35,689 nt of DNA, from positions 1-35,689 of the forward strand of contig CAYXYC010000002.1 of the NCBI GenBank assembly GCA_964469225.1, given 5' to 3'. The notes beneath the pieces were generated by a model. The model did not search any database. It saw nothing but the letters and a program-made list of their open reading frames with translations, and had not been told where the DNA came from. This stretch comes from an uncultured Candidatus Saccharibacteria bacterium. Its GTDB lineage: Bacteria > Patescibacteriota > Minisyncoccia > Phycocordibacterales > UBA9973. Made by a program: the position numbers and the translations under genes. Below are positions 2,784-33,379 of the stretch, piece after piece; positions within the stretch are counted from its first letter, which is position 1, and each line of letters opens with the position of its first letter.

Positions 2784-4442
2784 ATGAAAAAAATTACTTC
2801 GTCACTAAAAATAGGAATTCTTGCAATCGTGCTTTCTTTTGGTGTTTCGTATGTGTTTGCTGATTGGAGTGCACCAACAGCAACAGCTCCAAATAACAAT
2901 GCTCCAACACCATTAAACGGCACAGCAACAGATCAAACAAAAGCAGGTAAATTAACAGCAGGAGGATTAGATGTTTCGACAGGAAAGACTTATCAGTACG
3001 AAGGTTCTGATATTATAAAAGGAAAAATATCAACAGGTAGTTTATTTTTTGGAAAAGATGCTGGAAATGTATCAGTTTCAGGAAGTAGCAATGTTGGTCT
3101 TGGACAAGAATCATTAAAATTCATTTCTTCTGGTAGTACAAATAGTGCTATTGGATACAGAAGTTTATATGCGAACACAACAGGTTCAGAAAATACCGCA
3201 CTTGGTGGATATGCACTTTATTTCAACACTTCTGGAGCTACGAATGTTGGTGTCGGCTCCGGATCTTTGTATACAAATACAGTAGGTTCAAACAATACTG
3301 CAATCGGAGTTTCTTCACTTCATAAAAATACTTCGGGAGTAGACAGTACGGCTGTTGGTCGTGAAGCGCTTTATTCAAATACAATCGGGGAAGAAAATGT
3401 CGGAGTAGGTTCATTTGCGTTGCGAGCGAACACAACAGGTTTTGCAAATACGGCTTTGGGTGTACACGCACTTCGATCAAACACAACAGCAACTGGTAAT
3501 ACTGCGGTTGGAAATGGGGCGTTGTATTGGAACACAACAGGCGCAGCAAACACGGCACTCGGTGTTTCTTCTTTAGGTCAAAACACGACAGGTACAAATA
3601 ATGTGGCAATTGGAATAAGTTCACTTGGACAAAATACATGGGGTTCAAACAATACAGCAATTGGTTATACTGCCCTGTTAAATAATATGGGCGGGTCAAA
3701 CAATGTTGCTGTGGGTCAAGACGCACTTCGTCAGAGTAAAACATCAAACAATACTGCTGTTGGTGTTGGTGCTTTGTCCCAGAATTCTGTGGGTGCAACA
3801 TCAATCACACAATCAGGAAATACTGCTGTTGGATATAATGCTCTTTCATCTGTTACAACTGGTTCAAATAATACTGCAATCGGTACTGGAGCAGATACTG
3901 GTGGAGGTAACGCAAGTACACTTACCAATGCAACGGCAATTGGATATAATGCCAAGGTTTTACTCAGTGACAGTATTAAACTTGGAAATAATAATGTAAC
4001 TTCTGTTATTACAACTGGCGCAATTACAAGTTCTCGTAACATTACTGGTTCACAAGGTTTTGATTGTCCGGGACAACTTTCGGGTTGTTATCGCGCATCA
4101 TCTGACTTTCGTTTGAAAAAAGATATTAAAGAAGACAATCTCGGTCTTGATTTCATTTTGAAATTGCGTCCAGTAACATTTAAATATAAGAAAGGCGCAG
4201 GTAACATTCTCAACGGTTTGATTGCGCAGGAGGTAGAGCAGGCACTCAAAGATCTCGGTACAAATTTCAGTGGACTCATTCGACCATCTCCAATCAATGA
4301 ATATTACAGTTTGGATTATAGTAACTTCGTTGTTCCTCTTATTAATGCAGTTCAAGATCAACAGAAAGAAATCAATGAATTAAAGGCAAAAAATGCTGAT
4401 TTTGAAGCACGATTGAAAGCCCTCGAGGCGAAATTAAGGTAA
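2784..4442 (+). CDS. secreted tail-fibre-like protein with 'NTA(I/V)G..AL..NT.G..N' repeats and a C-terminal peptidase S74 intramolecular-chaperone domain
   Basis: Signal peptide MKKITSSLKIGILAIVLSFGVSYVFA. More than 15 degenerate 'NTAxG' repeats. The C-terminus from nt 4098 reads 'SSDFRLKKDIKE..LRPVTFKYK..GLIAQEVEQ', matching the S74 'SD.R.K.NI ... F.Y ... G..AQE' pattern, followed by a short coiled-coil tail. Confidence 0.75.
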   Translation: MKKITSSLKIGILAIVLSFGVSYVFADWSAPTATAPNNNAPTPLNGTATDQTKAGKLTAGGLDVSTGKTYQYEGSDIIKGKISTGSLFFGKDAGNVSVSGSSNVGLGQESLKFISSGSTNSAIGYRSLYANTTGSENTALGGYALYFNTSGATNVGVGSGSLYTNTVGSNNTAIGVSSLHKNTSGVDSTAVGREALYSNTIGEENVGVGSFALRANTTGFANTALGVHALRSNTTATGNTAVGNGALYWNTTGAANTALGVSSLGQNTTGTNNVAIGISSLGQNTWGSNNTAIGYTALLNNMGGSNNVAVGQDALRQSKTSNNTAVGVGALSQNSVGATSITQSGNTAVGYNALSSVTTGSNNTAIGTGADTGGGNASTLTNATAIGYNAKVLLSDSIKLGNNNVTSVITTGAITSSRNITGSQGFDCPGQLSGCYRASSDFRLKKDIKEDNLGLDFILKLRPVTFKYKKGAGNILNGLIAQEVEQALKDLGTNFSGLIRPSPINEYYSLDYSNFVVPLINAVQDQQKEINELKAKNADFEARLKALEAKLR

Positions 4443-5725: not shown

Positions 5726-6925
5726 ATGGCAGAAGAATTTAATCGAGATAAGCCACACGTAAATGTGGGTACTATTGGTCACGTTGACCACGGTAAGACA
5801 ACGCTTACAGCGGCTATTCTCCAAGTCCTCTCACGACAAGGTGGTGGATATGGTGCTAAAATTAAAGGTGTTGATCAAATTGACTCTGCGCCTGAAGAAA
5901 AAGCTCGTGGTATCACGATCGCTCTTTCTCACAACGAGTACTGGACTCCAGCTCGTCACTACGCTCACATTGATGCTCCAGGTCACGCGGACTACATCAA
6001 GAACATGATTACAGGTGCTGCCCAAATGGACGGTGCGGTTATTGTTGTTGCTGCTACTGATGGTGTTATGCCACAGACACGCGAACACGTTCTCCTTGCA
6101 AAACAAGTTGGTGTTCCAAAAATCATCGTGTTCTTGAACAAGTGCGACATGGTTGACGACAAAGACATGCTTGATCTCGTTGAAGAAGAAGTTCGTGAAC
6201 TCCTTACAAAACAAGGTTTTGATGGTGCTGCAACTCCAGTTATTCGTGGTTCAGGTCTTAAGGCTCTCGAATCAGCAAATAACGATGACGAATGGGCAAA
6301 GAAAGTTCTTGAGCTTACAAATGCTCTTGATACATACATCCCAACACCAGAACGTGATACAACAAAGCCATTCCTTATGCCTATCGAAGACATCTTCTCT
6401 ATTGAAGGTCGCGGTACGGTTGTTACTGGTAAAATCGAACGAGGTATCGTGAAAGTTGGTGAAGATGTTGAAATTGTTGGTATTAAAGATACTGCAAAGA
6501 CAACAGTTACTGGTATTGAAATGTTCAACAAAAACTTGAAAGAAGGAATGGCTGGTGACAACGCTGGTATTCTTATCCGCGGTATCAAAAAAGAAGATAT
6601 CACTCGCGGTCAGGTTCTCTGCAAGCCAGGCACAGTGACTCCTCACTCAGAATTCGAATGTGAAGTTTACATCTTGAAGAAGGAAGAAGGTGGTCGCCAC
6701 ACTCCATTCTTTACTGGATACAAGCCACAGTTCTACATCCGTACAACAGATGTAACTGGTGAATCAACACTTCCAACAGGGGTTGAAATGGTTATGCCAG
6801 GAGACACAGTGAAGCTCTCAGTGAAACTCGTTACTCCAGTTGCACTCGAAGAACAACAGCGTTTCGCTATCCGTGAAGGAGGCAAAACAGTCGGTGCGGG
6901 TGTTGTAACAAAGATCAACAAATAA
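5726..6925 (+). CDS. tuf: elongation factor Tu
   Basis: [18 protein letters not shown] and NKCD GTPase motifs. Full-length 399 aa. Confidence 0.98.
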
Positions 6926-10112: not shown

Positions 10113-10140
10113 CAAAAAATGCCCTACGGGGCATTTTTTG
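10113..10140. terminator. intrinsic terminator directly after rplB
   Basis: A-run, stem atgccc/gggcat (10119-10124 / 10029+100 i.e. 10129-10134), loop tacg, then T6. Confidence 0.7.
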
Positions 10141-10157
10141 ATGTATACTATTGCTAT

Positions 10158-10550
10158 ATGCAAAAACTATCAGAAAAAAAGCGGTTTTCAGTTGTAGCCC
10201 GAATTCAAAGCACGAATAATGCTTTGCGTGGAGTTGGTATTTTTATTCGTGCAACACATAATGCATGGCTCCATTTTTTCTTTGCCGGATGTGCTATTTT
10301 TCTCGGATTTCTCCTTTCTATTTCAACTTTTGAATGGCTAGTAGTCGTTATTGCTATTGCACTTGTTGTTATAACTGAAGCAATAAATACTGCCATTGAA
10401 ATTGATATTGATCTGACAAGTCCTAATTACCATCCGTATGCTCGTGATACCAAAGATGTCGCTGCTGGCGCAGCCCTTCTCGCTGTTGCCATGTCCGGGG
10501 TCATAGGACTTATTATTTTTTTGCCGAAAATACTTTTGATTTTGAAATAA
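10158..10550 (+). CDS. dgkA: diacylglycerol/undecaprenol kinase family membrane protein
   Basis: Three TM segments and the 'ITEAINTAIE..ID' DgkA motif. The ORF-track start 10119 lies inside the rplB terminator hairpin, so I use the ATG at 10158 (MQKLSEKK). Confidence 0.8.
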   Translation: MQKLSEKKRFSVVARIQSTNNALRGVGIFIRATHNAWLHFFFAGCAIFLGFLLSISTFEWLVVVIAIALVVITEAINTAIEIDIDLTSPNYHPYARDTKDVAAGAALLAVAMSGVIGLIIFLPKILLILK

Positions 10551-10582
10551 AAAAAAGAGGAACAATGTTGTTCCTCTTTTTA
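10549..10582. terminator. bidirectional terminator between convergent dgkA and PRTase genes
   Basis: 10-bp stem agaggaacaa/ttgttcctct (10556-10565 / 10568-10577), flanked by an A-run and a T-run. Confidence 0.75.
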
Positions 10583-10586
10583 CTCC

Positions 10587-11225
10587 CTATTTTAAAGGAA
10601 GATACCATTCTTCAAGTTTTTTTCTGTCTGATCGCTTAATTAAGTTTTTTGTTTTACCTACATAAAACATTTCAGGATAGGTAAACAAGGAAAAGATTTC
10701 GCACTTCTGGATGATATTATTCGAATCACTACCATAGTGGGTTTTTCCCGCAAATACTTTTTTTGTTTTTGAAAATTCATAATCAAAGATTGAAAAACAA
10801 AGAGAAACATATCCATTTGCCCTGCGAATTGTATTGATTGCTCGGGCTAGGCTTTCGCCTGTTGAAATAGTGCCCTCAACGATAAGCACTTTTTTCCTCT
10901 TAAAATACGACATTGTTTCATCGCTGATTTCCTGATAGGGAAGCCCAAGGGCATCAGCGAGCAATGACGCATAGGGAATGCCTGCCGTTGCTACTCCCGT
11001 AATAATTTCAGGCATCATATCGCGTTTAATTCCAAGGAAGGTACAAAAGCCATGTGTAATAAGTTTTCGGTGATCTGGGCTTCTAAGGAAAAGACGATCG
11101 TTAGTGTAAATGGGCGCTACGTCACCATTTTTCCAGTGGAATTTTTTTACGGGGTCAATCTCTATGATTCCTTCTGTCAGGGCGATTTCTGTCAGTTGTA
11201 CAGCAATTTCCTTTAAATTTTCCAT
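10587..11225 (-). CDS. type I phosphoribosyltransferase, orotate-PRTase-like (diverged)
   Basis: 'ITGVATAGIPYASLLA' followed by the PRPP loop 'KKVLIVEGTISTGESL'. Overall layout resembles PyrE, but the PRPP-loop acidic pair is E-G rather than D/E-D. Confidence 0.7.
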   Translation of the reverse strand: MENLKEIAVQLTEIALTEGIIEIDPVKKFHWKNGDVAPIYTNDRLFLRSPDHRKLITHGFCTFLGIKRDMMPEIITGVATAGIPYASLLADALGLPYQEISDETMSYFKRKKVLIVEGTISTGESLARAINTIRRANGYVSLCFSIFDYEFSKTKKVFAGKTHYGSDSNNIIQKCEIFSLFTYPEMFYVGKTKNLIKRSDRKKLEEWYLPLK

Positions 11226-14154: not shown

Positions 14155-14694
14155 ATGGAAACAGTAAAGCAAAAAGAAAATAAGGCATTCAAAACACTTG
14201 GCGCAAAATATGGCTACAAGAATGTTATGGCTGCACCTCATCTTGTGAAGGTTGTTGTTTCTGTTGGTACTGGGTCAGCAATCAAGCGCGACAAGAATCG
14301 CAACACATTCATTATGGACCGTTTGGCGAAAATAACTGGACAGAAGCCGGCTACTCGTAAAGCAAAGAAATCAATTGCAAGTTTCAAGGTTCGTCAGGGT
14401 GATCAGATTGGTGTTATGGTCACACTTCGTGGTGCTCGTATGTACGGATTCCTCGAAAAGCTTATCAATGTTGCAATCCCTCGAACAAAGGACTTCCGTG
14501 GTATTGATCGCAAGATTGTTGATAATATCGGTAATATGACACTCTCAATCAAAGAACACACTATTTTCCCTGAAACAGGTGACGAAGAATTGAAAGATGT
14601 GTTTGGTCTCGGAGTAACAGTGGTTACAACAGCAAAGACTAAAGCAGAAGCTCTCGATTTTTTTGAACTCATTGGTGTTCCATTTAAAAAGTAA
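14155..14694 (+). CDS. rplE: 50S ribosomal protein L5
   Basis: 'F.VR.G..IG..VTLRG..MY.FL.KLI..A.PR..DFRG' L5 signature. Confidence 0.96.
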   Translation: METVKQKENKAFKTLGAKYGYKNVMAAPHLVKVVVSVGTGSAIKRDKNRNTFIMDRLAKITGQKPATRKAKKSIASFKVRQGDQIGVMVTLRGARMYGFLEKLINVAIPRTKDFRGIDRKIVDNIGNMTLSIKEHTIFPETGDEELKDVFGLGVTVVTTAKTKAEALDFFELIGVPFKK

Positions 14695-14703
14695 AATTAA
14701 TAT

Positions 14704-14729
14704 AAAAAATCCCCGAAAGGGGATTTTTT
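14704..14729. terminator. intrinsic terminator directly after rplE
   Basis: aaaaaatcccc / gaaa loop / ggggatttttt, a perfect 11-bp stem including the A and T tracts. Confidence 0.8.
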
Positions 14730-14755
14730 ATATTAGAAAATGATATACTTTTAAT

Positions 14756-15187
14756 ATGACAATATTAAGAGGTTTTGTATATTTACTCCTTGCTTCCCTT
14801 ATTTGTTTTGCAATCTATAAGTATTTTGCACTGGATACAAATCAGGATATTCAAGATTCGTTCAAGGAGGGGAATCTTACCAAGGCAGAACTGGCTATCC
14901 GTACAGTGATTTCAGAAAAACTGGCAAATGAGGCCAAGCAGTATCTCCATGATCACAATAATTACTTTGTTTCAAAATCTAATAACCTTTGTTTAAGCAC
15001 CAAGTCGCTTTTTACTGGGCTTGAGCAATTTACCTCAAATCCTGTCGAATGCGTAGCACAAGCTCACTCATTTACCGCTCGTATCAAGCGAGTCGGTTCT
15101 GACAGCTATTTCTGCGCTGATGCAAAAGGGTTTAATACTATTTCTGCAACAGAAGAGGGGTATGTGGCAGGGGTGAAGTGCAAATAA
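14756..15187 (+). CDS. membrane-anchored hypothetical protein (143 aa, Cys-containing ectodomain)
   Basis: N-terminal TM helix (GFVYLLLASLICFAIYKYF). First gene of the island inserted in the spc operon. Confidence 0.55.
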   Translation: MTILRGFVYLLLASLICFAIYKYFALDTNQDIQDSFKEGNLTKAELAIRTVISEKLANEAKQYLHDHNNYFVSKSNNLCLSTKSLFTGLEQFTSNPVECVAQAHSFTARIKRVGSDSYFCADAKGFNTISATEEGYVAGVKCK

Positions 15188-15195
15188 TCCTTCCG

Positions 15196-15222
15196 TTTCC
15201 CCTAGGTCCAACCTAGGGGAAA
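15196..15222 (+). repeat. REP-like palindrome, copy 1 (TTTCCCCTAGGTCCAACCTAGGGGAAA)
   Basis: 9-bp core stem cccctaggt/acctagggg with loop cca (core 15199-15219), flanked by TTT/AAA and then a T-run. Lies between the 14756 gene and the RAYT gene. Confidence 0.9.
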
Positions 15223-15248
15223 GTTTTTTATCTTGATATAATATTCAA

Positions 15249-15935
15249 ATGAGTTTGCGAGATAAAAATCTTGTGCCAGGTGAGTATTATCATATATATA
15301 ATCGTGGTAATGGAAAGAATATAATTTTTCATGATGATGAAGATTATCGACGTTTTACAAAACTCCTGTATCTTTGTAATTCAGAAAAGAAAATTAATTT
15401 TCGTGATTTAATTACAGACAACAAAATAGACACTTTTGATTTTGAAAGAGGTACCACTATTGTGTCTATTCTTGCGTGGGTTCTAATGCCTAATCATTTT
15501 CATCTAGTTCTTATTTCCCCTAGGTTGGACCTAGGGGAAGAAAAGGGTCAGAAATATAATTCAATTACTGAATTTATGAGAAAGATATCTACTTCTTATG
15601 CAATGTATTTTAATAAGAAATATAAAAGAACAGGGTCACTTTTTGAAGGTAATTTTAAGTCAAAACATATAGGCGAAGAAGGTTATTTTAATTATATTTT
15701 TTCTTATGTTCATTTGAATCCAATAAAACTAATTCAATCTGACTGGAAAGAACGTGGAATTATAAATGAACAAAAAGCATTGGATTATATAAACCATTTT
15801 CAGTATTCAAGTTTTATTGATTATTTTGGTGATTACCGGAAAGAATCAAAAATCCTTAATAAAGAATTTGTACCAGATTATTTAAAGATAAATCACGCAA
15901 AAGATATTTTTAATTGGATTAAAATATCTCATTAG
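15249..15935 (+). CDS. IS200/IS605-family Y1 (HUH) transposase, REP-associated tyrosine transposase (RAYT)-like
   Basis: 'YYHIYNRGN....IF.DD.DY..F' N-terminus, HUH motif 'MPNHFHLVL', 'GSLFEGNFKSKHI', and the catalytic Tyr region 'YVHLNPIK'. Flanked on both sides by the same palindrome. Confidence 0.8.
   Translation: MSLRDKNLVPGEYYHIYNRGNGKNIIFHDDEDYRRFTKLLYLCNSEKKINFRDLITDNKIDTFDFERGTTIVSILAWVLMPNHFHLVLISPRLDLGEEKGQKYNSITEFMRKISTSYAMYFNKKYKRTGSLFEGNFKSKHIGEEGYFNYIFSYVHLNPIKLIQSDWKERGIINEQKALDYINHFQYSSFIDYFGDYRKESKILNKEFVPDYLKINHAKDIFNWIKISH
15514..15539 (-). repeat. REP-like palindrome, copy 2 (inverted loop tgg), in-frame inside the RAYT CDS
   Basis: tttcccctaggttggacctaggggaa, core 15517-15537. 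Encodes S90-P-R-L-D-L-G-E97, five residues after the HUH histidines. Confidence 0.9.
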
Positions 15936-15962
15936 TTTCCCCTAGGTCCAACCTAGGGGAAA
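15936..15962 (+). repeat. REP-like palindrome, copy 3
   Basis: Identical 27-mer TTTCCCCTAGGTCCAACCTAGGGGAAA, starting 1 nt after the RAYT stop codon. Confidence 0.9.
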
Positions 15963-16015
15963 TATCCTGTATTGTATGACAGGTGATGCGAAGGTATTGG
16001 GATATTATGCGGTGC

Positions 16016-16043
16016 TTGACTTTTATTTTTAAAATGCTATAAT
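16016..16043 (+). promoter_or_regulatory. consensus promoter of the DGR target gene
   Basis: TTGACT (16016-16021), 16 nt, TGC-TATAAT (16038-16043). Confidence 0.65.
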
Positions 16044-16072
16044 ATAGCAAAATTTAAAAACAAAAGTCAGTT

Positions 16073-16585
16073 ATGAAAAAAGTTATGTTTCTTGTGCCAA
16101 TTATGGCATTCTTCCTTGCTTCCTGTGGAGGCGGTTCGTCTAACACAGTAGAAGATCTAGTGCTTCCTGTAACGGTTGATTATTCAAAATCAATCGAAAA
16201 AGCATTAGAAACTGGTCATTATGATTTCATTAATAAAGATATTTCATCAACCTCTTTCGCTAATGACAATAAAGACACAGTCATCACACTTGAGGCGACA
16301 TTGATCACTTTTAACAGGAGTATGGCTTCAGAAGATGTTGTGGCTCAATTAAAATCTCGTGGATTTCGTCCTGGTACAGCACGAGAACTTTATGCTCTTG
16401 GTGCACGCTATCCTCGACTTCAGAGAGAAATTTCTATTATTGCTCTTGGTTCAGTATCAGCGGCTTCCCACGTTCCCGGATTGTTTGAGGGTGTGGATGG
16501 TGATCGGGATGCGTATCTTTGGTTTTGGTCTGATGTTTGGAGTTCTGAGTACTGGTTTCTGGCTTTCCGCGACAGCACTTTGTAA
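16073..16585 (+). CDS. surface lipoprotein, putative DGR variable (target) protein with C-terminal variable region
   Basis: Lipobox FFLASC|GGGSS. The last ~40 aa (AASHVPGLFEGVDGDRDAYLWFWSDVWSSEYWFLAFR) are encoded by the VR. W/Y/G/D-rich C-terminus as in C-type-lectin-fold DGR targets (fold is inference). Confidence 0.8.
   Translation: MKKVMFLVPIMAFFLASCGGGSSNTVEDLVLPVTVDYSKSIEKALETGHYDFINKDISSTSFANDNKDTVITLEATLITFNRSMASEDVVAQLKSRGFRPGTARELYALGARYPRLQREISIIALGSVSAASHVPGLFEGVDGDRDAYLWFWSDVWSSEYWFLAFRDSTL
16460..16570 (+). repeat. DGR variable repeat (VR), codons 130-166 of the lipoprotein gene
   Basis: 111 nt aligning without gaps to 16904-17014. 97 identities and 14 mismatches, all at positions where the other copy has A. 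Confidence 0.85.
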
Positions 16586-16903
16586 CTTTGTATTTGTCTT
16601 AACAAAGATCCTTTGATTCTTTTGCACTTTGCACTTGGATTAAAGGGTTTTTTCTTTTATACTTACTATGAGAGTAGGAAAGTTGTGTACGGTTACGGCT
16701 TTACACCCCGAAATCAGAATCTCACTATCGAGAGCGTGGTCGGATATGTCTTACTGCGGAGTGATTTTGATGTATTCTTAATAAAAAAATAATATGTCGG
16801 TGTATATATCTGGTTGATTTTGAAATCACAAATAAAATACAGCATGATTCTTGAGATATATAATTCTTGAATCGGCAGTGTCACAGATGGGTATATACAC
16901 AAA

Positions 16904-17014
16904 GCGGATTCCCACGTTCCCGAATTGTATGAGAATGTGAATGGTAATCGGAATGCGAATCTTTGGAATTGGTCTGATGATTGGAATTCTGAGTACTGGT
17001 TTCTGGCTTTCCGA
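16904..17014 (+). repeat. DGR template repeat (TR), non-coding
   Basis: Same orientation as the VR. The reading frame matching the VR has a TGA at 16868-16870 and no start codon after it. Carries 6 AAT codons plus GAT/GAA/TAT codons whose A residues are the only variable positions. Confidence 0.85.
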
Positions 17015-17032
17015 TACACACTATTTTCTTCC

Positions 17033-17077
17033 CCCACCTTTCCCCTAGGTCCAACCTAGGGGAAAGGTGGGTTTTTT
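17033..17077 (+). repeat. REP-like palindrome, copy 4, extended to an 18-bp stem plus T-run (terminator-like), 18 nt downstream of the TR
   Basis: cccacctttcccctaggt / cca / acctaggggaaaggtggg, followed by tttttt. Confidence 0.9.
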
Positions 17078-17098
17078 ATCTTTAATGACAATTTATAG

Positions 17099-17127
17099 TT
17101 GACATCCAAACTCCTATCTGATAGGAT
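17099..17127 (+). promoter_or_regulatory. promoter restarting the spc operon at rpsN
   Basis: TTGACA (17099-17104), 17 nt, TAGGAT (17122-17127). Leaves a leader of about 160 nt before rpsN. Confidence 0.5.
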
Positions 17128-17294
17128 AGTGGAACGTAAGTTGTAGATCCGTTCTCCTCCTTAAGTATCTGAAAAATAAAGGTATTTAAGAAAAAGAACG
17201 AGATATCCTTCTTATGAAATTAGTGGGGTTATTTTTATGGCTCCCCGCCTTTGGCGGGATGCTCATAAATTATAGTCGCTCTGCTCCTTAATTT

Positions 17295-17480
17295 ATGGCA
17301 AAAACATCAGTAATTGCAAGACATTTAAAGAAGTCAAAGTTTAGCACACGAGAAACAAATCGTTGTTTTCGTTGTGGTCGTGGACATGCCTACATGCGTG
17401 ATTTCGGGCTTTGTCGTATCTGTTTCCGTGAACTCGCTAACGAGGGTATGCTCCCAGGAGTTCGCAAGTCATCTTGGTAA
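17295..17480 (+). CDS. rpsN: 30S ribosomal protein S14, zinc-binding type Z (61 aa)
   Basis: 'CFRCGR...[12 protein letters not shown]' with CxxC..CxxC, and 'GV.K.SW' C-terminus. Confidence 0.96.
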
Positions 17481-23728: not shown

Positions 23729-26455
23729 ATGGAAAACTTGAATCCGAGCACAATGCCAAAATTCAAAACTCCTGAAGAGGAGCTCGCTTTTTTGCGTGCA
23801 CATATTGCTGAGAGGGAAAGAGCGTTTGCTGAGACGGGAGCGAATCGTTCACGAGAAGAAATTGCCCACGAAGTTATTTCCGAATACAAACAACATTCAC
23901 CAGAAACAGTGCTCCACAAAGAAGCAGTCATAAAAAATGCTGATACCGAGAATCTAGTCCTTCGTCTTCACCCAGAACCGCACGATAATAAAATGGAAGA
24001 AATGCTCGCAATCTTATTAGACAAAGGTATTTCAAATGCACTGTCTATTGTTGCCAAAATGAACAATCCACATCTTGATGATGACTTTCATCGTTTTCTT
24101 GTTCAGTACCTTGCAAGTACTCATGGTATTCCAGGATTAAAGGAGGGGATGCCACTTTGGAAAACACTTGATATGAAATTGTTTGAAATTACACTTCCTG
24201 ATGCATCAGATAATGAAAATACAAAAAAGAACTTGAAAGAGTTACTATCTGCTATGGAGCAGTTTTATGCTGGTATGCATTCTGTTGGCGAAAGTCGTCA
24301 AAATTATAATCGAAGTCATTTCACTCTTGAAATTGCACTCGCTGAAGGAACTGATCATTTTGTTTTTTATGTATCAGTACCGTCTCATAAATCTGATTTG
24401 TTTGAAAAGCAATTACTTGGTGTTCATCCTGATGCAAAAATCATTGAAGTGCCAGATGATTATAATATTTTTTCTGATTCTGGGGTTGTCGTCGGTTCAT
24501 ACGCAAAACTTGCTGACCAGCAGGTTTTCCCGATTAAACTCTATGATGCACTTGATCACGACCCAATGAATATCATTCTTAATAATTTCACAAAGTTGAA
24601 AAAGACAGGTGAGGGTGCATCTATTCAGTTTACGATTTGCCCGGAAGATGATGAAATTATTAAAAAATTTCATACAATTCTTTCTGATGTAAAAGAAGGC
24701 ATGTCTGTGAAAACTGCATCTAGCGTAAGTCGGCAAGTTACCAAGGAATTTACGTCGATTGCCAAAGAACTGATTTTTGGACCGAAGAAAGAAAAAGAAA
24801 AGAAAATAAACGAGTCTCATGTTGAATATATAACCGAGAAAATGAAAAGTACTATTCAGGCATCTACGATTCGCATTGTTGCGTCGGCTGAATCAAGTAT
24901 TCGTGCTAAACAAATTCTCGGTGAAATTGAATCATCCTTCAATCAATTTACTGAGGCGAATCGTAATGGTTTTAACTTTGTTCATCCAGAAGGAGCAGAT
25001 TTACAGAAACTTATCCATGATTTTTCATTCCGTACTTTTTCTGATGAATATGCCATGCCACTTAATCTGAAAGAATTGGCAACAATTTTCCACTTCCCAT
25101 ACGGTATTGTTTCTCCTCAACTAAAACAAGCAAAAGCAGGTATTGCGCCAGCGCCTATGGAGATAGGCACCGAGGGTGTTGTACTTGGAGTAAATGATTA
25201 TCGCGGTAAAGAAACAAAGATTCATTTTGCGAATGAAGACCGCATGCGCCATCTCTATGTGATTGGTCAGACAGGTACTGGCAAGACGACAATTATGAAA
25301 AATATGATTGCGCAAGACATCATTGCTGGGCATGGTGTTTGCTATATTGACCCACACGGTACGGATATTCAGGATATTTTGAGTTATATTCCTCGGGAGC
25401 GTCTTGATGATGTTATTTATTTTGATCCAGCATATACAGCACGACCAATGGGACTCAACATGCTCGAATATGATGCGCGTTATCCTGAACAAAAGACATT
25501 CGTCGTAAACGAATTGATGAATATCTTTAATAAATTGTTTGACATGAAGACCTCCGGCGGTCCGATGTTTGAACAATACTTTAAAAACTCGGCATTTCTC
25601 GTTATGGAACATCCAGAATCCGGCTCGACATTGCTTGAAATCGGTCGCGTTCTTTCCGATAAAGCGTTTCGTGAGATGAAATTGTCTCATTGTAAGAATC
25701 CAATCATTACGCAATTTTGGAGAAATGCCGAGCAAACGACTGGTGATCAATCTCTTGCGAACTTCGTACCATATATCACATCAAAGTTTGATAACTTTAT
25801 TTCAAACGATATTATGCGCCCTGTTGTCTTGCAAGAGAAATCAATTTTCAATTTCCGCGAGATTATGGATAACAAGAAAATCTTGCTTGTGAATTTGTCG
25901 AAAGGCCGTCTCGGTGATATTAATGCGAACCTTATCGGACTTTTGATTGTGAATAAGATTCAAATGGCGGCTTTGTCGCGCGTTGATATGTACGGCAAGC
26001 AAATGGAGGATTTCTTCTTGTATATTGATGAGTTCCAAAATGTGACGACAGATTCAATTGAATCAATTCTTTCTGAGGCGCGTAAGTACCGATTATCACT
26101 TACCGTTGCTCACCAATACATTTCGCAACTCGAAGACAATATTAAAAATGCTGTGTTCGGTAATGTGGGTTCAATGGCAGTGTTCCGTGTCGGTGCTGAA
26201 GATGCGCAATTTCTCGAAAGTAAATTCAAGCCAACATTTACAGCATCAGATATTATGAAAATTGAAAATCGCAATGCTTATATGTCAATGCTAGTGCATG
26301 GTCAGCCAACGAAGCCGTTTAATATGGCTACATTTCCTCCACCAGAAGGTAATCGTGACGCCGTGGAGTCAATCAAAGAACTTTCATATCTCAAATATGG
26401 TCGCGATCGCGCCGAAGTCGAAGAGGAAATACTGGGGAAGTATAAGCCGAATTAG
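23729..26455 (+). CDS. TraD/VirD4/TrwB-like (FtsK-HerA superfamily) P-loop ATPase with a ~480-aa unassigned N-terminal region
   Basis: Walker A 'GQTGTGKTT' (nt 25265-25291) followed by 'YIDPHG'. Walker B 'FFLYIDEFQN'. 'EARKYRLSLTVAHQY' resembles the TraG/TraD C-terminal module. No obvious TM helices. Confidence 0.75.
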   Translation: MENLNPSTMPKFKTPEEELAFLRAHIAERERAFAETGANRSREEIAHEVISEYKQHSPETVLHKEAVIKNADTENLVLRLHPEPHDNKMEEMLAILLDKGISNALSIVAKMNNPHLDDDFHRFLVQYLASTHGIPGLKEGMPLWKTLDMKLFEITLPDASDNENTKKNLKELLSAMEQFYAGMHSVGESRQNYNRSHFTLEIALAEGTDHFVFYVSVPSHKSDLFEKQLLGVHPDAKIIEVPDDYNIFSDSGVVVGSYAKLADQQVFPIKLYDALDHDPMNIILNNFTKLKKTGEGASIQFTICPEDDEIIKKFHTILSDVKEGMSVKTASSVSRQVTKEFTSIAKELIFGPKKEKEKKINESHVEYITEKMKSTIQASTIRIVASAESSIRAKQILGEIESSFNQFTEANRNGFNFVHPEGADLQKLIHDFSFRTFSDEYAMPLNLKELATIFHFPYGIVSPQLKQAKAGIAPAPMEIGTEGVVLGVNDYRGKETKIHFANEDRMRHLYVIGQTGTGKTTIMKNMIAQDIIAGHGVCYIDPHGTDIQDILSYIPRERLDDVIYFDPAYTARPMGLNMLEYDARYPEQKTFVVNELMNIFNKLFDMKTSGGPMFEQYFKNSAFLVMEHPESGSTLLEIGRVLSDKAFREMKLSHCKNPIITQFWRNAEQTTGDQSLANFVPYITSKFDNFISNDIMRPVVLQEKSIFNFREIMDNKKILLVNLSKGRLGDINANLIGLLIVNKIQMAALSRVDMYGKQMEDFFLYIDEFQNVTTDSIESILSEARKYRLSLTVAHQYISQLEDNIKNAVFGNVGSMAVFRVGAEDAQFLESKFKPTFTASDIMKIENRNAYMSMLVHGQPTKPFNMATFPPPEGNRDAVESIKELSYLKYGRDRAEVEEEILGKYKPN

Positions 26456-29492: not shown

Positions 29493-30401
29493 ATGAAAAA
29501 TTCATTTTTTACATTTATTAAAACTCATTGGTCACGAATACTTTCAGTTGCATTTTTTGTCTTCTTAAGTGGTGTCTACATGTATATTTTTGCTGTTGGT
29601 CCGTTTGCACCAGGAGAAAAACTTGATCCAGAATGTCGCCCAACAGATAGTGGTTGTACGGTTGATCTTGGTTTAACCTATACAAATTCAACTCCAACTC
29701 TTTCTGCTATTGGTGGTGTTTCAGCTGGTTCAACATTTAGTGGAAAAACTCTCCAAGAAATGTTTGATGATTTACTGTACCCATACACTGTTCCTACTAT
29801 TACTCTTTCCGTTTCTCCTTCCGCTGGTCTTCGTGAATTTGGTAATGATGTGACAAGTGTTGACTTAACAGCAACAACAACAAAACAATCCGATACGCTT
29901 ACCTCAGTAGTTTTCAAACGCGACGGAGTTGCTATTGATACAAATACGCCTCCAGCATCACCAGCAGGTGGAACAGAGACATATACCGAACCAACAGATG
30001 TTACAACTACAACAACATTCACGGCAACAGTAAATGACGGTACAACAGTTGTTACTTCAAATAGTCAGACATATACATTTGTATATGCTTATTACTACGG
30101 TGTCGGGGCACAAGGTCTTACCGGTGCGCAAATTGCAGGATTAACAAAGTCCGTTATTGGAAATACTTCTTCGGTGGCATTTACTTCATCTCCAAGTAGT
30201 CAGGTATTTTATTTCGCTTACCCCGCATCATACCCAGCTCTCACTTCTATTCTTGATAATAGTGGGTTCCAAACAATAGCTGATTACACAGTAAGTACGA
30301 CATCAATTACAAATGCTTATGGACAATCAACAACATACAGAGTGTATGAATATAACAATGTAACAACACAAACATCATTTACTAATACATTCATTCAATA
30401 A
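29493..30401 (+). CDS. membrane-anchored Thr-rich extracellular protein (302 aa)
   Basis: N-terminal TM helix (ILSVAFFVFLSGVYMYIFAV). Its stop overlaps the start of the next gene by 1 nt (TAATG), implying co-translation with the fibre protein. Confidence 0.6.
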   Translation: MKNSFFTFIKTHWSRILSVAFFVFLSGVYMYIFAVGPFAPGEKLDPECRPTDSGCTVDLGLTYTNSTPTLSAIGGVSAGSTFSGKTLQEMFDDLLYPYTVPTITLSVSPSAGLREFGNDVTSVDLTATTTKQSDTLTSVVFKRDGVAIDTNTPPASPAGGTETYTEPTDVTTTTTFTATVNDGTTVVTSNSQTYTFVYAYYYGVGAQGLTGAQIAGLTKSVIGNTSSVAFTSSPSSQVFYFAYPASYPALTSILDNSGFQTIADYTVSTTSITNAYGQSTTYRVYEYNNVTTQTSFTNTFIQ

Positions 30402-33322
30402 TGCGTAAATCAATTATCGTCACTAGAATATTCACTATTTTTGCAATCATAGGATTGCTCGGTGGATTTGCGTATCAAGTTTTTGCTGCGATCCCACTCG
30501 GTTCGAATTTTCAATTAAACTCTCAACTTCCTCTTGATGCACGAAGTGTTGCAACAACAATCACAACTAGAAATGCAATTTCTTCAGGTTCTCGGTATGA
30601 AGGTATGGTTGTTTATGTTATTGATTCTGATGGCGCTGGTAATCCAGCAACCTATCAATTACAAAATGGTATTACCAACAGCGACTGGGTAGAATTTGGA
30701 AGTGGTGCTGGGTCGGGGACAGTGACATCAGTTTCAGTGAGTACAGCCAATGGTGTTTCTGGTTCGGTTGCGAACAATACCACAACTCCTGCAATTACAC
30801 TTACGCTTGGTGCTATTACTCCTTCAAGTGTAAATGGTCTAACTCTAACTGCAGGCGGAACTGGGTTTTCAATAGCAGGAGGAACAACATCAAAGACACT
30901 TACTGTTTCTAATACTCTCACACTTGCGGGGACTGATAGCTCAACACTTAACATTGGTGCTGGGGGAACACTTGGTACAGGAGCGTTTGCTGCGCTTGGT
31001 GCAACGCGTGCTCTCGATAACCTTGCATCTGTTGCTATAAACACTTCTCTTATTTCAGATACTGACAATACAGATGCTCTAGGTTCTGCTACAATCGGTT
31101 GGTCAGATCTCTTTTTAGGTAACGGGTCAGTGATTACATGGTCAACAGCACCTTCGACTTCTGATCTTACACTTACTCATTCATCAAATGCCCTTACTCT
31201 TGCTGGTGGTTCACTTGTTCTTCCGAATGCTGGTCTTACTGTTGGTGCATCAGTTCCATTTAGTGATTCATCAGGAACACTTACACTTCAAAATGTTGAT
31301 GTACTTGATACAACAACAGAGGGAACTATTGAAGGGGCTATTGATACACTTGATAACTTGAATCGGATTCAGACACGCACTGTCTTGTTTGGCGGAGATT
31401 TCTCTACTGCCGGTGCGTTTACTACCGCTGGTGCATTTGCTCTTACTCTTACATCAACAGCCACAACAAATGTCACCTTGCCGACATCAGGAACACTTTA
31501 TGGCACGGCAACCGGCTCAATAACTTCATCCCAGCTTGCTACATCTCTCACAGACGAGACAGGTTCTGGGCTCGCAGTTTTTGACACTACTCCAACATTC
31601 ACTACAAACATAACTGCACCACTTGTTATTGGTGGTACAGGAACTACTTCGACGCTTACTTTCAAAACGACTTCAGGTGTAGGTACAACAAATGCCGACA
31701 TGATTTTCCAAGTTGGGAATGATGGTGCGACCGAAGCCATGCGTATTTTAAATAGTGGAAGTATCGGTATCGGCACCGCAAGCCCTTCATCGAAGTTAGA
31801 TATTACGACGAATACTTTAAACCAAACACAAACAACATCTTCTGGGTTAGCGCTTGTAAACACAACTGCGGCAGTAACTAATACACAACAAGTTTCCCCA
31901 GCAATAAGATGGCATGGAAGTGGATGGAGAGGTGCAACCTCTGCTGCTGTTGATTTTGATTTTCGTTCTTATGTTACTCCAGTTAAAACAACAGGAATTA
32001 GTTCAACCGCTTATCTTGGCTTTGGTTCATCAGTTGCAGGAGGAACATATAATGATGGTCAATTCATAATTAACTCTCTTGGAAATGTTGCAGTTGGAAC
32101 AGTAACACCAGTTGGATTATTCCAAGTAACACAACCAGGTATTGGTCCTGGTGTTGCTTCAACAACAGCTTCAAGTACAACAGTAAGTGGCATACATACT
32201 AATTTTCTAAATTCATTTAGAATCGGAGACACAATTACTATCAATGGAGAAACACGAACTATTTCAGCAATTGCTGGCAATGAATCAATGACAACAGATG
32301 CATGGACAGCTACAAACACTGACGCTAGTTATTCTGTTGGTAATACTGGTAGCCGTTTTATTATTAAGGGAAATGGATTTATGGGTACCAACTCAACTGA
32401 TATTACCGCCCGTCTGGATATCCAAGAGAATTATGGTTCTGGTAATGGTGCAGGATTGGGTTATGTGGCGAAATTCTTTAATGACGGTAATAATGCTGAT
32501 AGATTAGGTTTACAGGTACAAGCAGGAGAGGATTCCGGTACTGGAACACTCATACAATTCAGAGACGGAGATGGTACTGATGTTGGTGAGATTACTTTCT
32601 CTGGTACAACTGCTACATACGGTACAAGTTCAGATCGTCGTATGAAGGATAATATTATAGATACAAGGTACACCTTACAAGATCTTCTAAACATACAAGT
32701 TCGAGATTATACTTTCAATACGGAAAATTCTGGTCGTGTATATACTGGTTTCATTGCGCAGGATTTGAAAAATATTTATCCTGATGCTGTGTTTGCTCCT
32801 GATGATGGTATTACTGCAAACAATCCAAAGATGTGGTCTGTTGATTATGGAAAGATTACTCCTTTGATTGTTAAATCAATTCAGGATTTAAATCTTAAAA
32901 TCGAAGGGTTTAAATCTCTCAACCCTGATGAACCAGAATCACTCGGTTCACTTATCAAACAATTCCTCGCTGATAATATTCTTGCTATTAAAGAACTTAC
33001 CGCTTCCGTTCTCCGTATTAATGGCGAAGTTTGTGTAGACGATGTCTGTGTAACCAAAGACCAATTCAAAGCACTCTTGCAGAGTGCCGGTGGAACATCA
33101 AATCTCGTAAGTCCTCCAGCAGATTCTGGAACGGGCGGAGGTATCGATGTGGGAACTGGAGGAGATGTAACTACTGGCGAAGACCAATCTTCTGGCAGTA
33201 CAGAAACTCCTCCCTCTGATGTTTCTGGCGGAAGTGGTACCGATATACCTCCAGCAGATGGAGGGTCAAGCACAACAGATACTCCACCAGCCGATATTCC
33301 TCAAGCAGAACCTCAAATATAA
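30401..33322 (+). CDS. large secreted tail-fibre-like protein (973 aa) with a peptidase S74 intramolecular-chaperone domain and a P/G/T/S-rich C-terminal tail
   Basis: Signal/anchor IFTIFAIIGLLGGFAYQVFA. 'GSIGIGTASPSSKLDI' fibre motif. From nt 32627 'SSDRRMKDNIID..VRDYTF..GFIAQDL', an S74 pattern. Low-complexity tail from about 33100 to 33322. Confidence 0.75.
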   Translation: MRKSIIVTRIFTIFAIIGLLGGFAYQVFAAIPLGSNFQLNSQLPLDARSVATTITTRNAISSGSRYEGMVVYVIDSDGAGNPATYQLQNGITNSDWVEFGSGAGSGTVTSVSVSTANGVSGSVANNTTTPAITLTLGAITPSSVNGLTLTAGGTGFSIAGGTTSKTLTVSNTLTLAGTDSSTLNIGAGGTLGTGAFAALGATRALDNLASVAINTSLISDTDNTDALGSATIGWSDLFLGNGSVITWSTAPSTSDLTLTHSSNALTLAGGSLVLPNAGLTVGASVPFSDSSGTLTLQNVDVLDTTTEGTIEGAIDTLDNLNRIQTRTVLFGGDFSTAGAFTTAGAFALTLTSTATTNVTLPTSGTLYGTATGSITSSQLATSLTDETGSGLAVFDTTPTFTTNITAPLVIGGTGTTSTLTFKTTSGVGTTNADMIFQVGNDGATEAMRILNSGSIGIGTASPSSKLDITTNTLNQTQTTSSGLALVNTTAAVTNTQQVSPAIRWHGSGWRGATSAAVDFDFRSYVTPVKTTGISSTAYLGFGSSVAGGTYNDGQFIINSLGNVAVGTVTPVGLFQVTQPGIGPGVASTTASSTTVSGIHTNFLNSFRIGDTITINGETRTISAIAGNESMTTDAWTATNTDASYSVGNTGSRFIIKGNGFMGTNSTDITARLDIQENYGSGNGAGLGYVAKFFNDGNNADRLGLQVQAGEDSGTGTLIQFRDGDGTDVGEITFSGTTATYGTSSDRRMKDNIIDTRYTLQDLLNIQVRDYTFNTENSGRVYTGFIAQDLKNIYPDAVFAPDDGITANNPKMWSVDYGKITPLIVKSIQDLNLKIEGFKSLNPDEPESLGSLIKQFLADNILAIKELTASVLRINGEVCVDDVCVTKDQFKALLQSAGGTSNLVSPPADSGTGGGIDVGTGGDVTTGEDQSSGSTETPPSDVSGGSGTDIPPADGGSSTTDTPPADIPQAEPQI

Positions 33323-33355
33323 AAATTCCCCTAGGTTGGACCTAGGGGAATTTTT
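33321..33355 (-). repeat. REP-like palindrome, copy 5 (loop tgg), acting as bidirectional terminator between the fibre gene and rplT
   Basis: aaaaattcccctaggttggacctaggggaattttt. Core 33328-33348 is identical to copy 2, and the A5/T5 flanks extend the stem. Confidence 0.9.
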
Positions 33356-33379
33356 ATTCTACTTACCACTAACTACTTT

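Follow-up and report, generated by a model that had tools for sequence, protein, structure and literature searches.

The stretch of DNA analysed here (the window, 35,689 nt) holds an incomplete diversity-generating retroelement (DGR) of an already reported kind, in a genome of the Paceibacteria (candidate phyla radiation, CPR). A small surface-lipoprotein gene that ends in a variable repeat (VR) is followed by its template repeat (TR), and neither a reverse transcriptase (RT) nor Avd is encoded in the ~47 kb around them. We consider with high confidence that the locus is anatomically a real partial DGR and that the adjoining RAYT gene (REP-associated HUH tyrosine transposase) is incidental to it. 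On the further point, that the locus is an orphan left without its RT and now dormant, as opposed to one served in trans, our confidence is about evenly divided. RT-less partial DGRs, loci served in trans and IS200/IS605 transposases near variable proteins have all been published (PMC4372165, PMC10907252, PMC7517822). The present locus departs from the DUSEL4 precedent in that its template has become separated from the RT along with the target.

A TR/VR pair with an adenine-specific signature

The target gene, the repeats and the elements around them are as follows.

16016..16043, + strand: TTGACT-16-TATAAT preceded by a TG, a promoter-like site for the target gene; 11/12 matches; kept at homologous loci in other contexts
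16073..16585, + strand: DGR target gene, encoding a 170-aa lipoprotein with lipobox LASC and a C-type-lectin-like predicted fold
16459..16569, + strand: VR
16609..16657, + strand: stem-loop and T-run past the target gene; terminator and/or DGR cis element; kept in homologues in other contexts
16658..16902, + strand: non-coding stretch ahead of the TR, peculiar to this organism; matches neither a protein family nor Rfam; weak promoter-like hexamers
16903..17013, + strand: TR, non-coding; contains 25 adenines and, read in the frame of the VR, 7 AAT codons

The two repeats differ at 13 of 111 aligned nucleotides, and each of the 13 is an adenine in the TR (hypergeometric P 1.7e-10 for restriction to the 25 TR adenines), while all 86 non-adenine positions are the same in the VR. 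The mismatches are confined to codon positions 1 and 2; the seven AAT codons, intact in the TR, are altered without exception in the VR. When the 3' ends were inspected for IMH and IMH*, the homology stopped at ...GGCTTTCCG, followed by CGAC in the VR and ATAC in the TR. The VR constitutes the 3' end of the lipoprotein gene and ends 16 nt ahead of its stop codon; the TR is non-coding, with an in-frame stop read from the sequence ~35 nt upstream of it.

The lipoprotein has no Pfam match. Its AF2 model (pLDDT 82, pTM 0.78) retrieved mostly C-type lectin domains from the PDB with Foldseek, as weak matches (E 0.35-2, TM 0.33-0.48). The target family comprises eight clusters, whose members vary at the same VR positions, and homologues occur in four other genomic contexts: GrpE (P0004, P0006), ValRS/tsaD, RRF and RelA/TopA. 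At these homologous loci the fetched DNA contained no TR, the gene lists showed no RT family within 10 kb, and no RAYT gene lay nearby. On its 509-kb JGI contig (sample 3300072015), homologue P0005 is followed by a gap of 532 nt, a size that could accommodate a TR. A stem-loop 25-70 nt 3' of the VR is conserved, and it resembles a plain terminator too.

Ahead of the TR, promoter-like hexamers are weak at 16820-16848, and a TTGAAT-18-TATATA arrangement was seen by eye at 16868-16897. A terminator hairpin begins 20 nt past the TR. Taken together, the TR segment and this REP hairpin are predicted to form a compact and strongly structured RNA (z = -5.2).

Search for an RT, Avd and further copies of the TR

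The preliminary description had reported a TR/VR cassette in a window that encodes no RT or Avd, and both the adenine-only mismatches and our ORF and motif searches bear this out. No ORF of at least 110 aa in the window matched an RT or Avd family of Pfam or NCBIfam; these ORFs encode housekeeping proteins recognized by Pfam or NCBIfam, or have no match. The [YF]xDD box was absent from all six-frame stop-to-stop segments of at least 60 aa in the window. Independent contigs of the same organism add 2.3 kb to the left, with NusA and a pyrophosphatase, and ~9 kb to the right, with SmpB, FtsH, RecG and others; neither extension encodes an RT or Avd. The absence covers ~47 kb, made up of the window and both extensions.

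Neither 16586-16902 nor 17072-17294 showed a remnant of an RT or avd gene. Pfam, searched at E up to 1, gave no match for the short ORFs that lie in the VR-TR spacer and across the TR, and a Rfam scan of 14600-17400 returned sub-threshold chance matches only. We also scanned sequence collections, which do not contain this organism's own genome, for the 3' pattern common to the TR and VR. Among GTDB genomes it recovered only the VR of a related MAG (JBAYUP010000015); in JGI metagenomes it found that contig again, with five chance matches in GC-rich DNA, and in IMG/VR nothing. The closest relatives are the genomes that carry target homologues P0002 and P0003; the GTDB representative MAG with P0003 had no second match to the pattern. 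A search of viral contigs with the target alignment found no relative. An RT acting in trans and a relic left by RT loss had both been put forward for this locus; each is still compatible with these results, and the scans found neither the RT nor a second TR copy.

REP palindromes, terminators and the RAYT gene

A 27-nt REP palindrome occurs five times in the window, where no copy is expected by chance. The copies and their neighbours are listed below.

14698..14735, strand not assigned: hairpin with a 17-bp stem after rplE (14155-14694), flanked on either side by A/T runs; terminates the ribosomal-protein transcript that comes from upstream
14756..15187, + strand: 143-aa ORF with a hydrophobic N-terminus, between rplE and the first REP; no Pfam or NCBIfam match; called as a gene on independent contigs
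15196..15222, + strand: REP copy 1, hairpin followed by GTTTTTTATCTT; terminator-like
15249..15935, + strand: RAYT-like Y1/HUH transposase gene, 228 aa; HUH motif H83-F-H85; invariant Y149, Y153, H155, L156, N157
15514..15540, - strand: REP copy inside the RAYT ORF, in frame, encoding ISPRLDLGE just past the HUH motif
15936..15962, + strand: REP copy 2, beginning at the base after the RAYT stop codon
17033..17071, + strand: extended REP hairpin with an 18-bp stem (REP copy 3 = 17039-17065), followed by TTTTTTATCTT; strong intrinsic terminator
17099..17127, + strand: promoter-like site TTGACA-17-TAGGAT, from which rpsN (17295-17480) and the remaining spc operon genes could be transcribed anew
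33325..33351, - strand: fifth REP copy, core of a perfect 39-nt hairpin; bidirectional terminator

The palindrome described earlier is real, and the same-orientation copies at 15196 and 15936 were placed correctly; the third 27-mer lies at 17039, since 17033 is the start of the extended hairpin, and the inverted copies at 15514-15540 and 33325-33351 had been overlooked. The fifth copy sits between two convergent genes, one of 973 aa and rplT. The 5' flanks of the three + strand copies are unlike (CCTTCCG, CATTAG and CCCACC). A MAFFT alignment hinted at a decayed REP in the interval from the target terminator to the TR; this candidate was discarded, because its local alignment score was below 498 of 500 shuffles.

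The assignment of the RAYT gene relies on its motifs (HFH and the invariant Y...YxHLNP) and on profile matches that lie below the family cut-offs: Pfam Y1_Tnp with E 1.9e-4 (22 bits, cut-off 23) and NCBIfam REP_Tyr_transpos with E 1.9e-10 (40.8 bits, cut-off 80). An hhalign comparison with E. coli RayT gave E 9e-5 and a probability of 59%, over the HUH region only, and some homologues are named RayT by JGI. A profile search of PDB sequences returned no meaningful match, and the AF2 model (pLDDT 46) was too poor for a fold search. For the homologues examined in L030 and L032, the 6 kb around the gene are free of extragenic REPs. ORFs of 143, 145 and 145 aa stand upstream of three RAYT genes, but are not homologous to each other.

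The RAYT gene looks incidental to the partial DGR

It had been speculated that the HUH enzyme and the REP hairpins take part in the cassette. The adjacency of RAYT and target is, however, absent in every relative examined, of either gene, and this leaves a role of HUH/REP in the DGR unsupported; such a lack of conservation had been named beforehand, with the proposal itself, as an argument against a link. RAYT homologues occur in unrelated contexts with no target nearby, and the RAYT family has >7800 members across Paceibacteria as against the eight target clusters. The neighbouring RAYT looks incidental to the partial DGR.

In one form the proposal holds that the HUH enzyme and REP hairpins act in diversification itself: they might, for instance, process single-stranded DNA derived from the TR or install it, either as substitutes for the canonical DGR factors or together with them. 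This we regard as extremely improbable. Single-stranded DNA and hairpins are common to both systems, and beyond that only proximity speaks for it, whereas the adjacency is unique to this genome among relatives of both genes and the two families are very different in size. Adenine-specific mutagenesis is a property of DGR RTs, and no HUH enzyme is known to produce it.

Another form concerns the origin of the locus and fits either state of the DGR: the RAYT/REP system would have moved or assembled the 1.84-kb RAYT-REP-target-TR segment into the rplE-rpsN spacer, through single-strand transposition between same-orientation REP hairpins (IS200/IS605-like peel-and-paste) or through REP-REP recombination. 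The RAYT gene and the target-TR unit are indeed bracketed by three same-orientation REPs, and the REP plus GTTTTTTATCTT (39 nt) stands as a direct repeat at both ends (15196-15234 and 17039-17083). The target module is found in five different genomic contexts among relatives, the sole REP of the GrpE-context relatives (in the fetched locus, ~20 kb in L006) lies directly past the target terminator in either orientation, and in cyanobacteria the transposases met most often near DGR variable proteins are of the IS200/IS605 type (PMC7517822). Nevertheless, we consider this route improbable. Neither a second copy of the unit nor an empty site could be compared with it; in relatives the target is accompanied by a single REP at most and by no RAYT, and L004/L009 and L021 lack any REP near it; the decayed REP, as noted, was not significant. 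RAYTs are seen as domesticated, single-copy genes that do not move cargo (PMC5581495). Finally, REPs normally cluster round their RAYT, so that a third copy 1.1 kb off is unsurprising.

Present state of the locus

Several observations concern whether the VR still diversifies. Between the window and an ENA strain of this organism there are 9 SNPs per 10.4 kb, none of which lies in the VR or TR. Target homologue P0004 is a cluster of one, represented by one identical sequence on 10 contigs from at least six samples, and within P0007/P0129/P0130 and P0005/P0131 the differences affect only ordinary, non-hypervariable residues. These static VRs are those of consensus assemblies at ~3.5x coverage, in which minority variants are invisible. 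A Logan contig (L002) that ends inside the VR was rejected as a sign of population heterogeneity: given this coverage and the mere 27 exact nucleotides shared by TR and VR, such an end is uninformative. In rplV, L001 and the window disagree over 35 nt, but there the scaffold merely has a gap filled with Ns.

In the reading that we favour, the lipoprotein gene would be self-contained, with its own promoter, lipobox, C-type-lectin-like body and terminator, and its C-terminal VR would have been rewritten via mutagenic retrohoming from the TR 318 nt downstream. Such retrohoming would have required a DGR reverse transcriptase, which the ~47 kb do not encode. We infer that an RT gene formerly adjoined the TR, that this side of an earlier target-TR-RT cassette went missing or was split off, with the break at or near the REP hairpin past the TR, and that the locus is now inactive, the VR being fixed and the lipoprotein presumably expressed as a single allele. 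The former adjacency of the RT is suggested by analogy with the common CPR architecture target-TR-RT (PMC5758913) and not by any remnant. Precedents exist for RT-less partial DGRs, which were read as fossils or remote targets (PMC4372165), and for incomplete DGR loci reshaped by transposons (PMC10907252). The REP hairpins would belong to a resident Paceibacteria RAYT/REP system and act as intrinsic terminators that shield the inserted genes from the spc operon, which the terminator-like REPs elsewhere in the window (15196 and 33325) support; transcription of rpsN could be restarted from the site at 17099-17127. The hairpins may mark rearrangement junctions, but would stay outside the diversification chemistry.

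The canonical DGR RNA, that of Bordetella phage BPP-1, needs a spacer of ~140 nt 3' of the TR for priming. With only 20 nt between the TR and the terminator, there is no room here for such a spacer RNA. Since, in addition, the VRs are static in the relatives and between the two strains, the evidence leans to dormancy. The identity of TR and VR at all non-adenine positions and the intact AAT codons indicate that homing was recent, and hence that the RT loss, if real, was recent as well. Against dormancy, a streamlined CPR genome might be expected to drop a useless template of 116 nt, and an RT may be encoded elsewhere in the genome, beyond the ~47 kb seen. If the locus is a fossil, it represents an intermediate in DGR decay, in which the RT is gone and the TR and VR still match at every non-adenine position; other members of the lipoprotein family would have lost the TR as well, and the locus would help to date and model the turnover of DGRs in CPR genomes.

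A split but active DGR is somewhat less probable than dormancy. The TR would be a small stand-alone template gene with a weak promoter and a REP terminator, retained beside its target and served in trans by an RT from another part of the genome or from a plasmid or phage in the same cell; the resulting cDNA would home to the VR. The lack of any non-adenine mismatch over 111 nt and the intact AAT codons of the TR speak for this reading, and the compact predicted fold of the TR segment with the REP hairpin, the promoter-like hexamers ahead of the TR and the candidate cis-element stem-loop kept past the VR across relatives are likewise in its favour. Experiments with plasmids have demonstrated that DGR components can act in trans (cited in PMC5758913), and the same was inferred for incomplete Thiohalocapsa loci (PMC10907252). 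Detection pipelines demand a repeat within 1 kb of the RT (PMC8144416), and therefore systematically miss TRs that are detached from it. What weighs against an active split DGR is that no RT lies within the ~47 kb and that the GTDB, JGI and IMG/VR scans, which exclude the organism's own genome, gave no second TR or RT-linked copy; the static VRs and the short TR-to-terminator distance count against it too. If the TR is still used, DGR template and enzyme can be unlinked, which bears on DGR RNA recognition and on the number of DGRs overlooked by RT-anchored surveys.

A more specific version, which we find rather unlikely, is that the TR constitutes a portable, stand-alone template gene, which moves together with the target and not with the RT, ends at the REP hairpin and is copied by a far-off RT. 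Were this true, CPR DGR RTs could recognise template RNA that has no usual RT-proximal spacer, and RT-anchored surveys would miss a class of split DGRs. An assembly artefact, namely a chimeric join at the REP or TR/VR repeats with the TR really beside an RT elsewhere, might be suggested by the repeats of 27-39 nt at the junctions and by the low coverage. It is, however, scarcely credible, as the independent SPAdes assembly of the ENA strain has the same order from rplW to rplR with every junction, and Logan contigs confirm the segment from rplX through the VR. Whichever state applies, a functional tie of the DGR to the HUH transposase is unsupported and should not be carried forward.

Comparison with known systems

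The partial DGRs of DUSEL4 Nanoarchaeota (Paul et al. 2015, PMC4372165) also have a target gene with an adenine-mutagenised VR at an RT-less site in an ultra-small, symbiont-type genome, and the same two readings, fossil or remote DGR, were considered for them. Those fragments are described as target, VR and cis elements only, whereas here the cognate TR is kept beside the target. Thiohalocapsa PB-PSB1 (Dore et al. 2024, PMC10907252) likewise has loci without the RT and/or TR, which transposons have reshaped and for which service in trans was proposed; one incomplete locus, DGR 1, showed no current diversification, and for DGR 3 and DGR 7 structural variants with an RT were found. However, complete DGRs with matching TRs exist in that same genome and population diversification was measured, while here the RT and a second TR were not found and no variation was seen.

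The locus resembles the CPR Architecture A (target/TR/RT; Wu et al. 2018, PMC5758913) in its small target with a C-terminal VR, the lack of avd, the same-strand TR a few hundred nucleotides downstream and A-to-N changes at codon positions 1/2 of AAY codons. An accessory gene (avd, HRDC or others) is optional, 29% of DGR cassettes having none (PMC5758913). The defining RT gene of that architecture is missing here, and the TR is followed by the REP terminator and then by rpsN. As with the cyanobacterial IS200/IS605 transposases (Vallota-Eastman et al. 2020, PMC7517822), which were suggested to disperse DGR components, a Y1/HUH gene adjoins the DGR target. In contrast to them, it is a RAYT-type, probably domesticated gene with REP hairpins, and not an IS, and the association does not recur among relatives.

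Known REP/RAYT systems (Nunvar 2010, PMC2817692; Ton-Hoang 2012, PMC3333891; Bertels 2017, PMC5581495) share with this one a palindrome-flanked HUH/Y1 protein and the recurrence of the flanking palindrome in intergenic, terminator-like positions. The present system differs from them in its only distant sequence relation to E. coli RayT, in its low REP density (5 copies in ~45 kb, 4 of them at the RAYT) and in an extra REP-like hairpin kept inside the coding sequence. Such a hairpin is found inside RAYT coding sequences, where it is kept through compensatory changes, and it may be more novel than the DGR locus.

The cassette and its genomic setting

The genome is low in GC and of Paceibacteria type (CPR), and the cassette lies in its S10/spc ribosomal-protein cluster, where ∼2.6 kb of extra DNA separates rplE (14155-14694) from rpsN (17295-17480). 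The elements of this region are listed below; REP denotes a 27-nt palindrome and RAYT a REP-associated HUH tyrosine transposase.

Features of the inserted region (window positions)
14698-14735: hairpin 3' of rplE
14756-15187: 143-aa ORF, function unknown
from 15196: REP copy 1
15249-15935: RAYT-like gene, 228 aa
from 15936: REP copy 2
16016-16043: strong promoter-like site 5' of the target gene
16073-16585: lipoprotein target gene, 170 aa; the VR is its last 111 nt ahead of the final codons
3' of the target gene: stem-loop with a T-run
between this stem-loop and the TR: unique non-coding DNA, ∼245 nt
16903-17013: TR
17033-17071: 18-bp-stem hairpin around REP copy 3, then a T-run
17099-17127: second promoter-like site, upstream of rpsN

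A slightly different strain, 9 SNPs per 10.4 kb away, was assembled independently (ENA) and shows an identical gene order across all junctions, which rules out a chimeric assembly as the source of this layout. The S10 operon is interrupted a second time, between rplB and rpsS (10119-11225), by a gene for diacylglycerol kinase (10119-10550) and, on the opposite strand, a 212-aa gene (10587-11225) with a weak phosphoribosyltransferase match.

A DGR signature with no reverse transcriptase nearby

Over 111 nt, the gap-free alignment of TR and VR has 13 mismatches; at each of them an A of the TR is replaced by G, T or C in the VR, and only codon positions 1 and 2 are affected. The TR contains 25 adenines, and the probability of all 13 mismatches falling on these is 1.7e-10. 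Every one of the seven TR AAT codons is altered in the VR, and the 86 non-A positions are all identical between the two. The pair is a genuine DGR signature of unambiguous direction. None of the sizeable ORFs of the window matches an RT or Avd family, each being an identifiable housekeeping protein or a protein without such a match, and no [YF]xDD box occurs in any six-frame segment of at least 60 aa. Independent contigs of the same organism extend the region beyond the window, and no RT was found in 2.3 kb more on the left (NusA, pyrophosphatase) or in ∼9 kb more on the right (SmpB, FtsH, Zip, RecG, a two-component pair, MscL). Both the TR/VR cassette and the lack of RT and Avd reported in the preliminary description are thus borne out.

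RT-less partial DGRs have been described in Nanoarchaeota, with the same alternatives of fossil or remote elements (PMC4372165), and remote DGR targets are well documented (PMC5758913). In Thiohalocapsa, incomplete DGR loci have been reshaped by transposons; some are apparently served in trans and one is not diversifying (PMC10907252). Near the DGR variable proteins of cyanobacteria, the most frequent transposases are of the IS200/IS605 type, and a role in dispersing components has been suggested (PMC7517822). In contrast to these systems, the TR here remains with the target while the RT is absent, a configuration that would escape a large DGR survey demanding a repeat within 1 kb of the RT (PMC8144416).

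The target gene in other genomic contexts

The target protein has an LASC lipobox and a confident AF2 model (pLDDT 82), whose neighbours in the PDB are weak and dominated by C-type lectin domains. DGR variable proteins are usually of the C-type-lectin-like kind. The family is small (8 clusters, 42-78% identity), its members vary at the same VR residues, and homologues occupy four other contexts.

Genomic contexts of target-protein homologues
P0004, P0006: PaaX-like/102-123-aa genes on one side, GrpE on the other
P0003: ValRS on one side, small ORF/tsaD on the other
P0005: holB on one side, RRF on the other
P0007: RelA/SpoT on one side, TopA on the other

No RT family was detected within 10 kb of the homologues and no RAYT at their loci in any of these contexts, nor was a TR found in the loci with DNA sequence. 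What is kept is a compact module consisting of a promoter (TTGAC...TATAAT), the gene and a terminator stem-loop. Five different neighbourhoods were counted at 42-78% identity (loci L004/L009, L006-L008, L021-L023, L024-L029 and that of P0005), which argues that the gene is either mobile or housed in very fluid genomes. At the GrpE-context loci, one REP stands directly 3' of the target terminator, the sole REP of the fetched locus (about 20 kb in L006), and it occurs in either orientation, with the loop reversed between L006 and L024. In the P0005 locus (JGI 3300072015, 509-kb contig), the homologue is followed by a 532-nt gene-free gap; since this resembles the stop-to-REP interval of the window (486 nt), that relative may also retain a TR.

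RAYT gene and REP hairpins

The RAYT-like protein has an HUH motif (H83-F-H85) and an invariant Y...YxHLNP block. Its scores against Pfam Y1_Tnp and NCBIfam REP_Tyr_transpos are slightly under the cut-offs, and it is alignable with E. coli RayT around the HUH motif only. Its family is very large (more than 7800 matches, chiefly Paceibacteria and Parcubacteria), and some homologues are named RayT by JGI. Homologues at 73-76% identity adjoin SpoU/SUKH genes or rpoB; none has a target gene in its vicinity or an extragenic REP within 6 kb. As target relatives lack the RAYT and RAYT relatives lack the target, the RAYT-target-TR synteny is specific to this organism. This is the outcome that was named beforehand as counting against the RAYT/REP-target link proposed earlier. 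Nothing supports participation of the HUH enzyme in mutagenic homing itself.

The REP 27-mer occurs in five copies in the window against none expected. The three same-orientation copies reported previously are present, the third starting at 17039 rather than 17033, and two inverted copies, at 15514 (within the RAYT ORF) and 33325, had been overlooked. Directly after the REPs at 15196 and 17039 stands the same GTTTTTTATCTT, and both score as intrinsic terminators. A perfect 39-nt hairpin (33319-33357) has the REP at 33325 as its core and lies between the convergent 973-aa gene and rplT, suggesting that REPs serve as bidirectional terminators. Their simplest role here would be transcriptional insulation of foreign genes inside a ribosomal operon, with the promoter-like site allowing rpsN to be expressed again. 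Together with GTTTTTTATCTT, the REP makes up a 39-nt direct repeat (15196-15234 and 17039-17083, the second copy with an extra GTGGG and a longer stem) that brackets the 1.84-kb RAYT-target-TR segment; this is compatible with insertion or duplication of the segment through the REPs, which we nevertheless consider improbable. A decayed REP suspected upstream of the TR failed a shuffle test.

The inverted copy in the RAYT ORF (15514-15540), right after the HUH motif, is not an insertion; it encodes a conserved peptide, IS(P/H)RSDL(G/W/C)E. In 121 homologues, residues 91 and 96 covary (H+W 57, P+G 41, H+C 15, other 8). At the codon level, P(CCT)/G(GGN) becomes H(CAT)/W or C(TGN), a compensatory exchange of C:G for A:T in a DNA/RNA stem (CCCCTAGG/CCTAGGGG to CCCATAGG/CCTATGGG). 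The palindrome was observed directly in three genes with different loops (window 15514-15540; RAYT-relative loci L030 and L032, both 6269-6289), and that of the window matches the reverse complement of the extragenic REP exactly at 26 of 27 nt, loop included. Given the covariation and the three palindromes, a nucleic-acid hairpin inside the coding sequence appears to be under selection, and may act in autoregulation or be the origin of the REPs. Literature searches on RAYT/REP systems in CPR bacteria gave no description of such a hairpin.

Active or dormant cassette

The perfect TR/VR identity at non-A positions counts against a dormant cassette and means that homing was recent on the scale of neutral divergence. 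It speaks for a split DGR, in which the TR is served by a distant RT. Against continued service, the VRs of relatives are static, as far as consensus assemblies at ∼3.5x coverage, where minority variants are invisible, can reveal: within the 90%-identity clusters, 10 contigs from at least 6 samples give one and the same P0004 protein, and P0007/P0129/P0130 and P0005/P0131 show ordinary substitutions only, all outside the hypervariable residues; one of these substitutions falls in the invariant part of the VR. None of the 9 sites differing from the ENA strain in 10.4 kb falls in the TR or VR, and in the GTDB representative MAG with P0003 the single match to the TR/VR 3' pattern is its own VR. 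Together, these data suggest a lineage whose target gene persists longer than its diversification machinery; this organism may stand partway along that course. For priming, the best-studied DGR RNA, that of the BPP-1 system, depends on a long spacer downstream of the TR; here, a very stable terminator hairpin starts only 20 nt after the TR, and the template RNA therefore seems to lack its RT-proximal part. Weighing static VRs and the short TR-terminator distance with recent homing, we give about even odds to a dormant, recently orphaned cassette, and put service by a distant RT at roughly one chance in three.

Across the whole target-TR interval, the window and the ENA strain differ by a single SNP, at 16898, 5 nt upstream of the TR and in the candidate -10/start region of a TR transcript.

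Elsewhere in the window, a gene directly after map, where the ribosomal cluster ends, encodes a 908-aa protein (23729-26455) that weakly matches type IV secretion coupling proteins (VirD4/TraG/TrwB) as well as a HerA/FtsK-like ATPase. Two large proteins of 552 and 973 aa (2784-4442 and 30401-33322) carry a Peptidase_S74 domain, known from phage tail fibres as the intramolecular chaperone of endosialidase; these proteins may be fibres on the CPR cell surface or remnants of a prophage.
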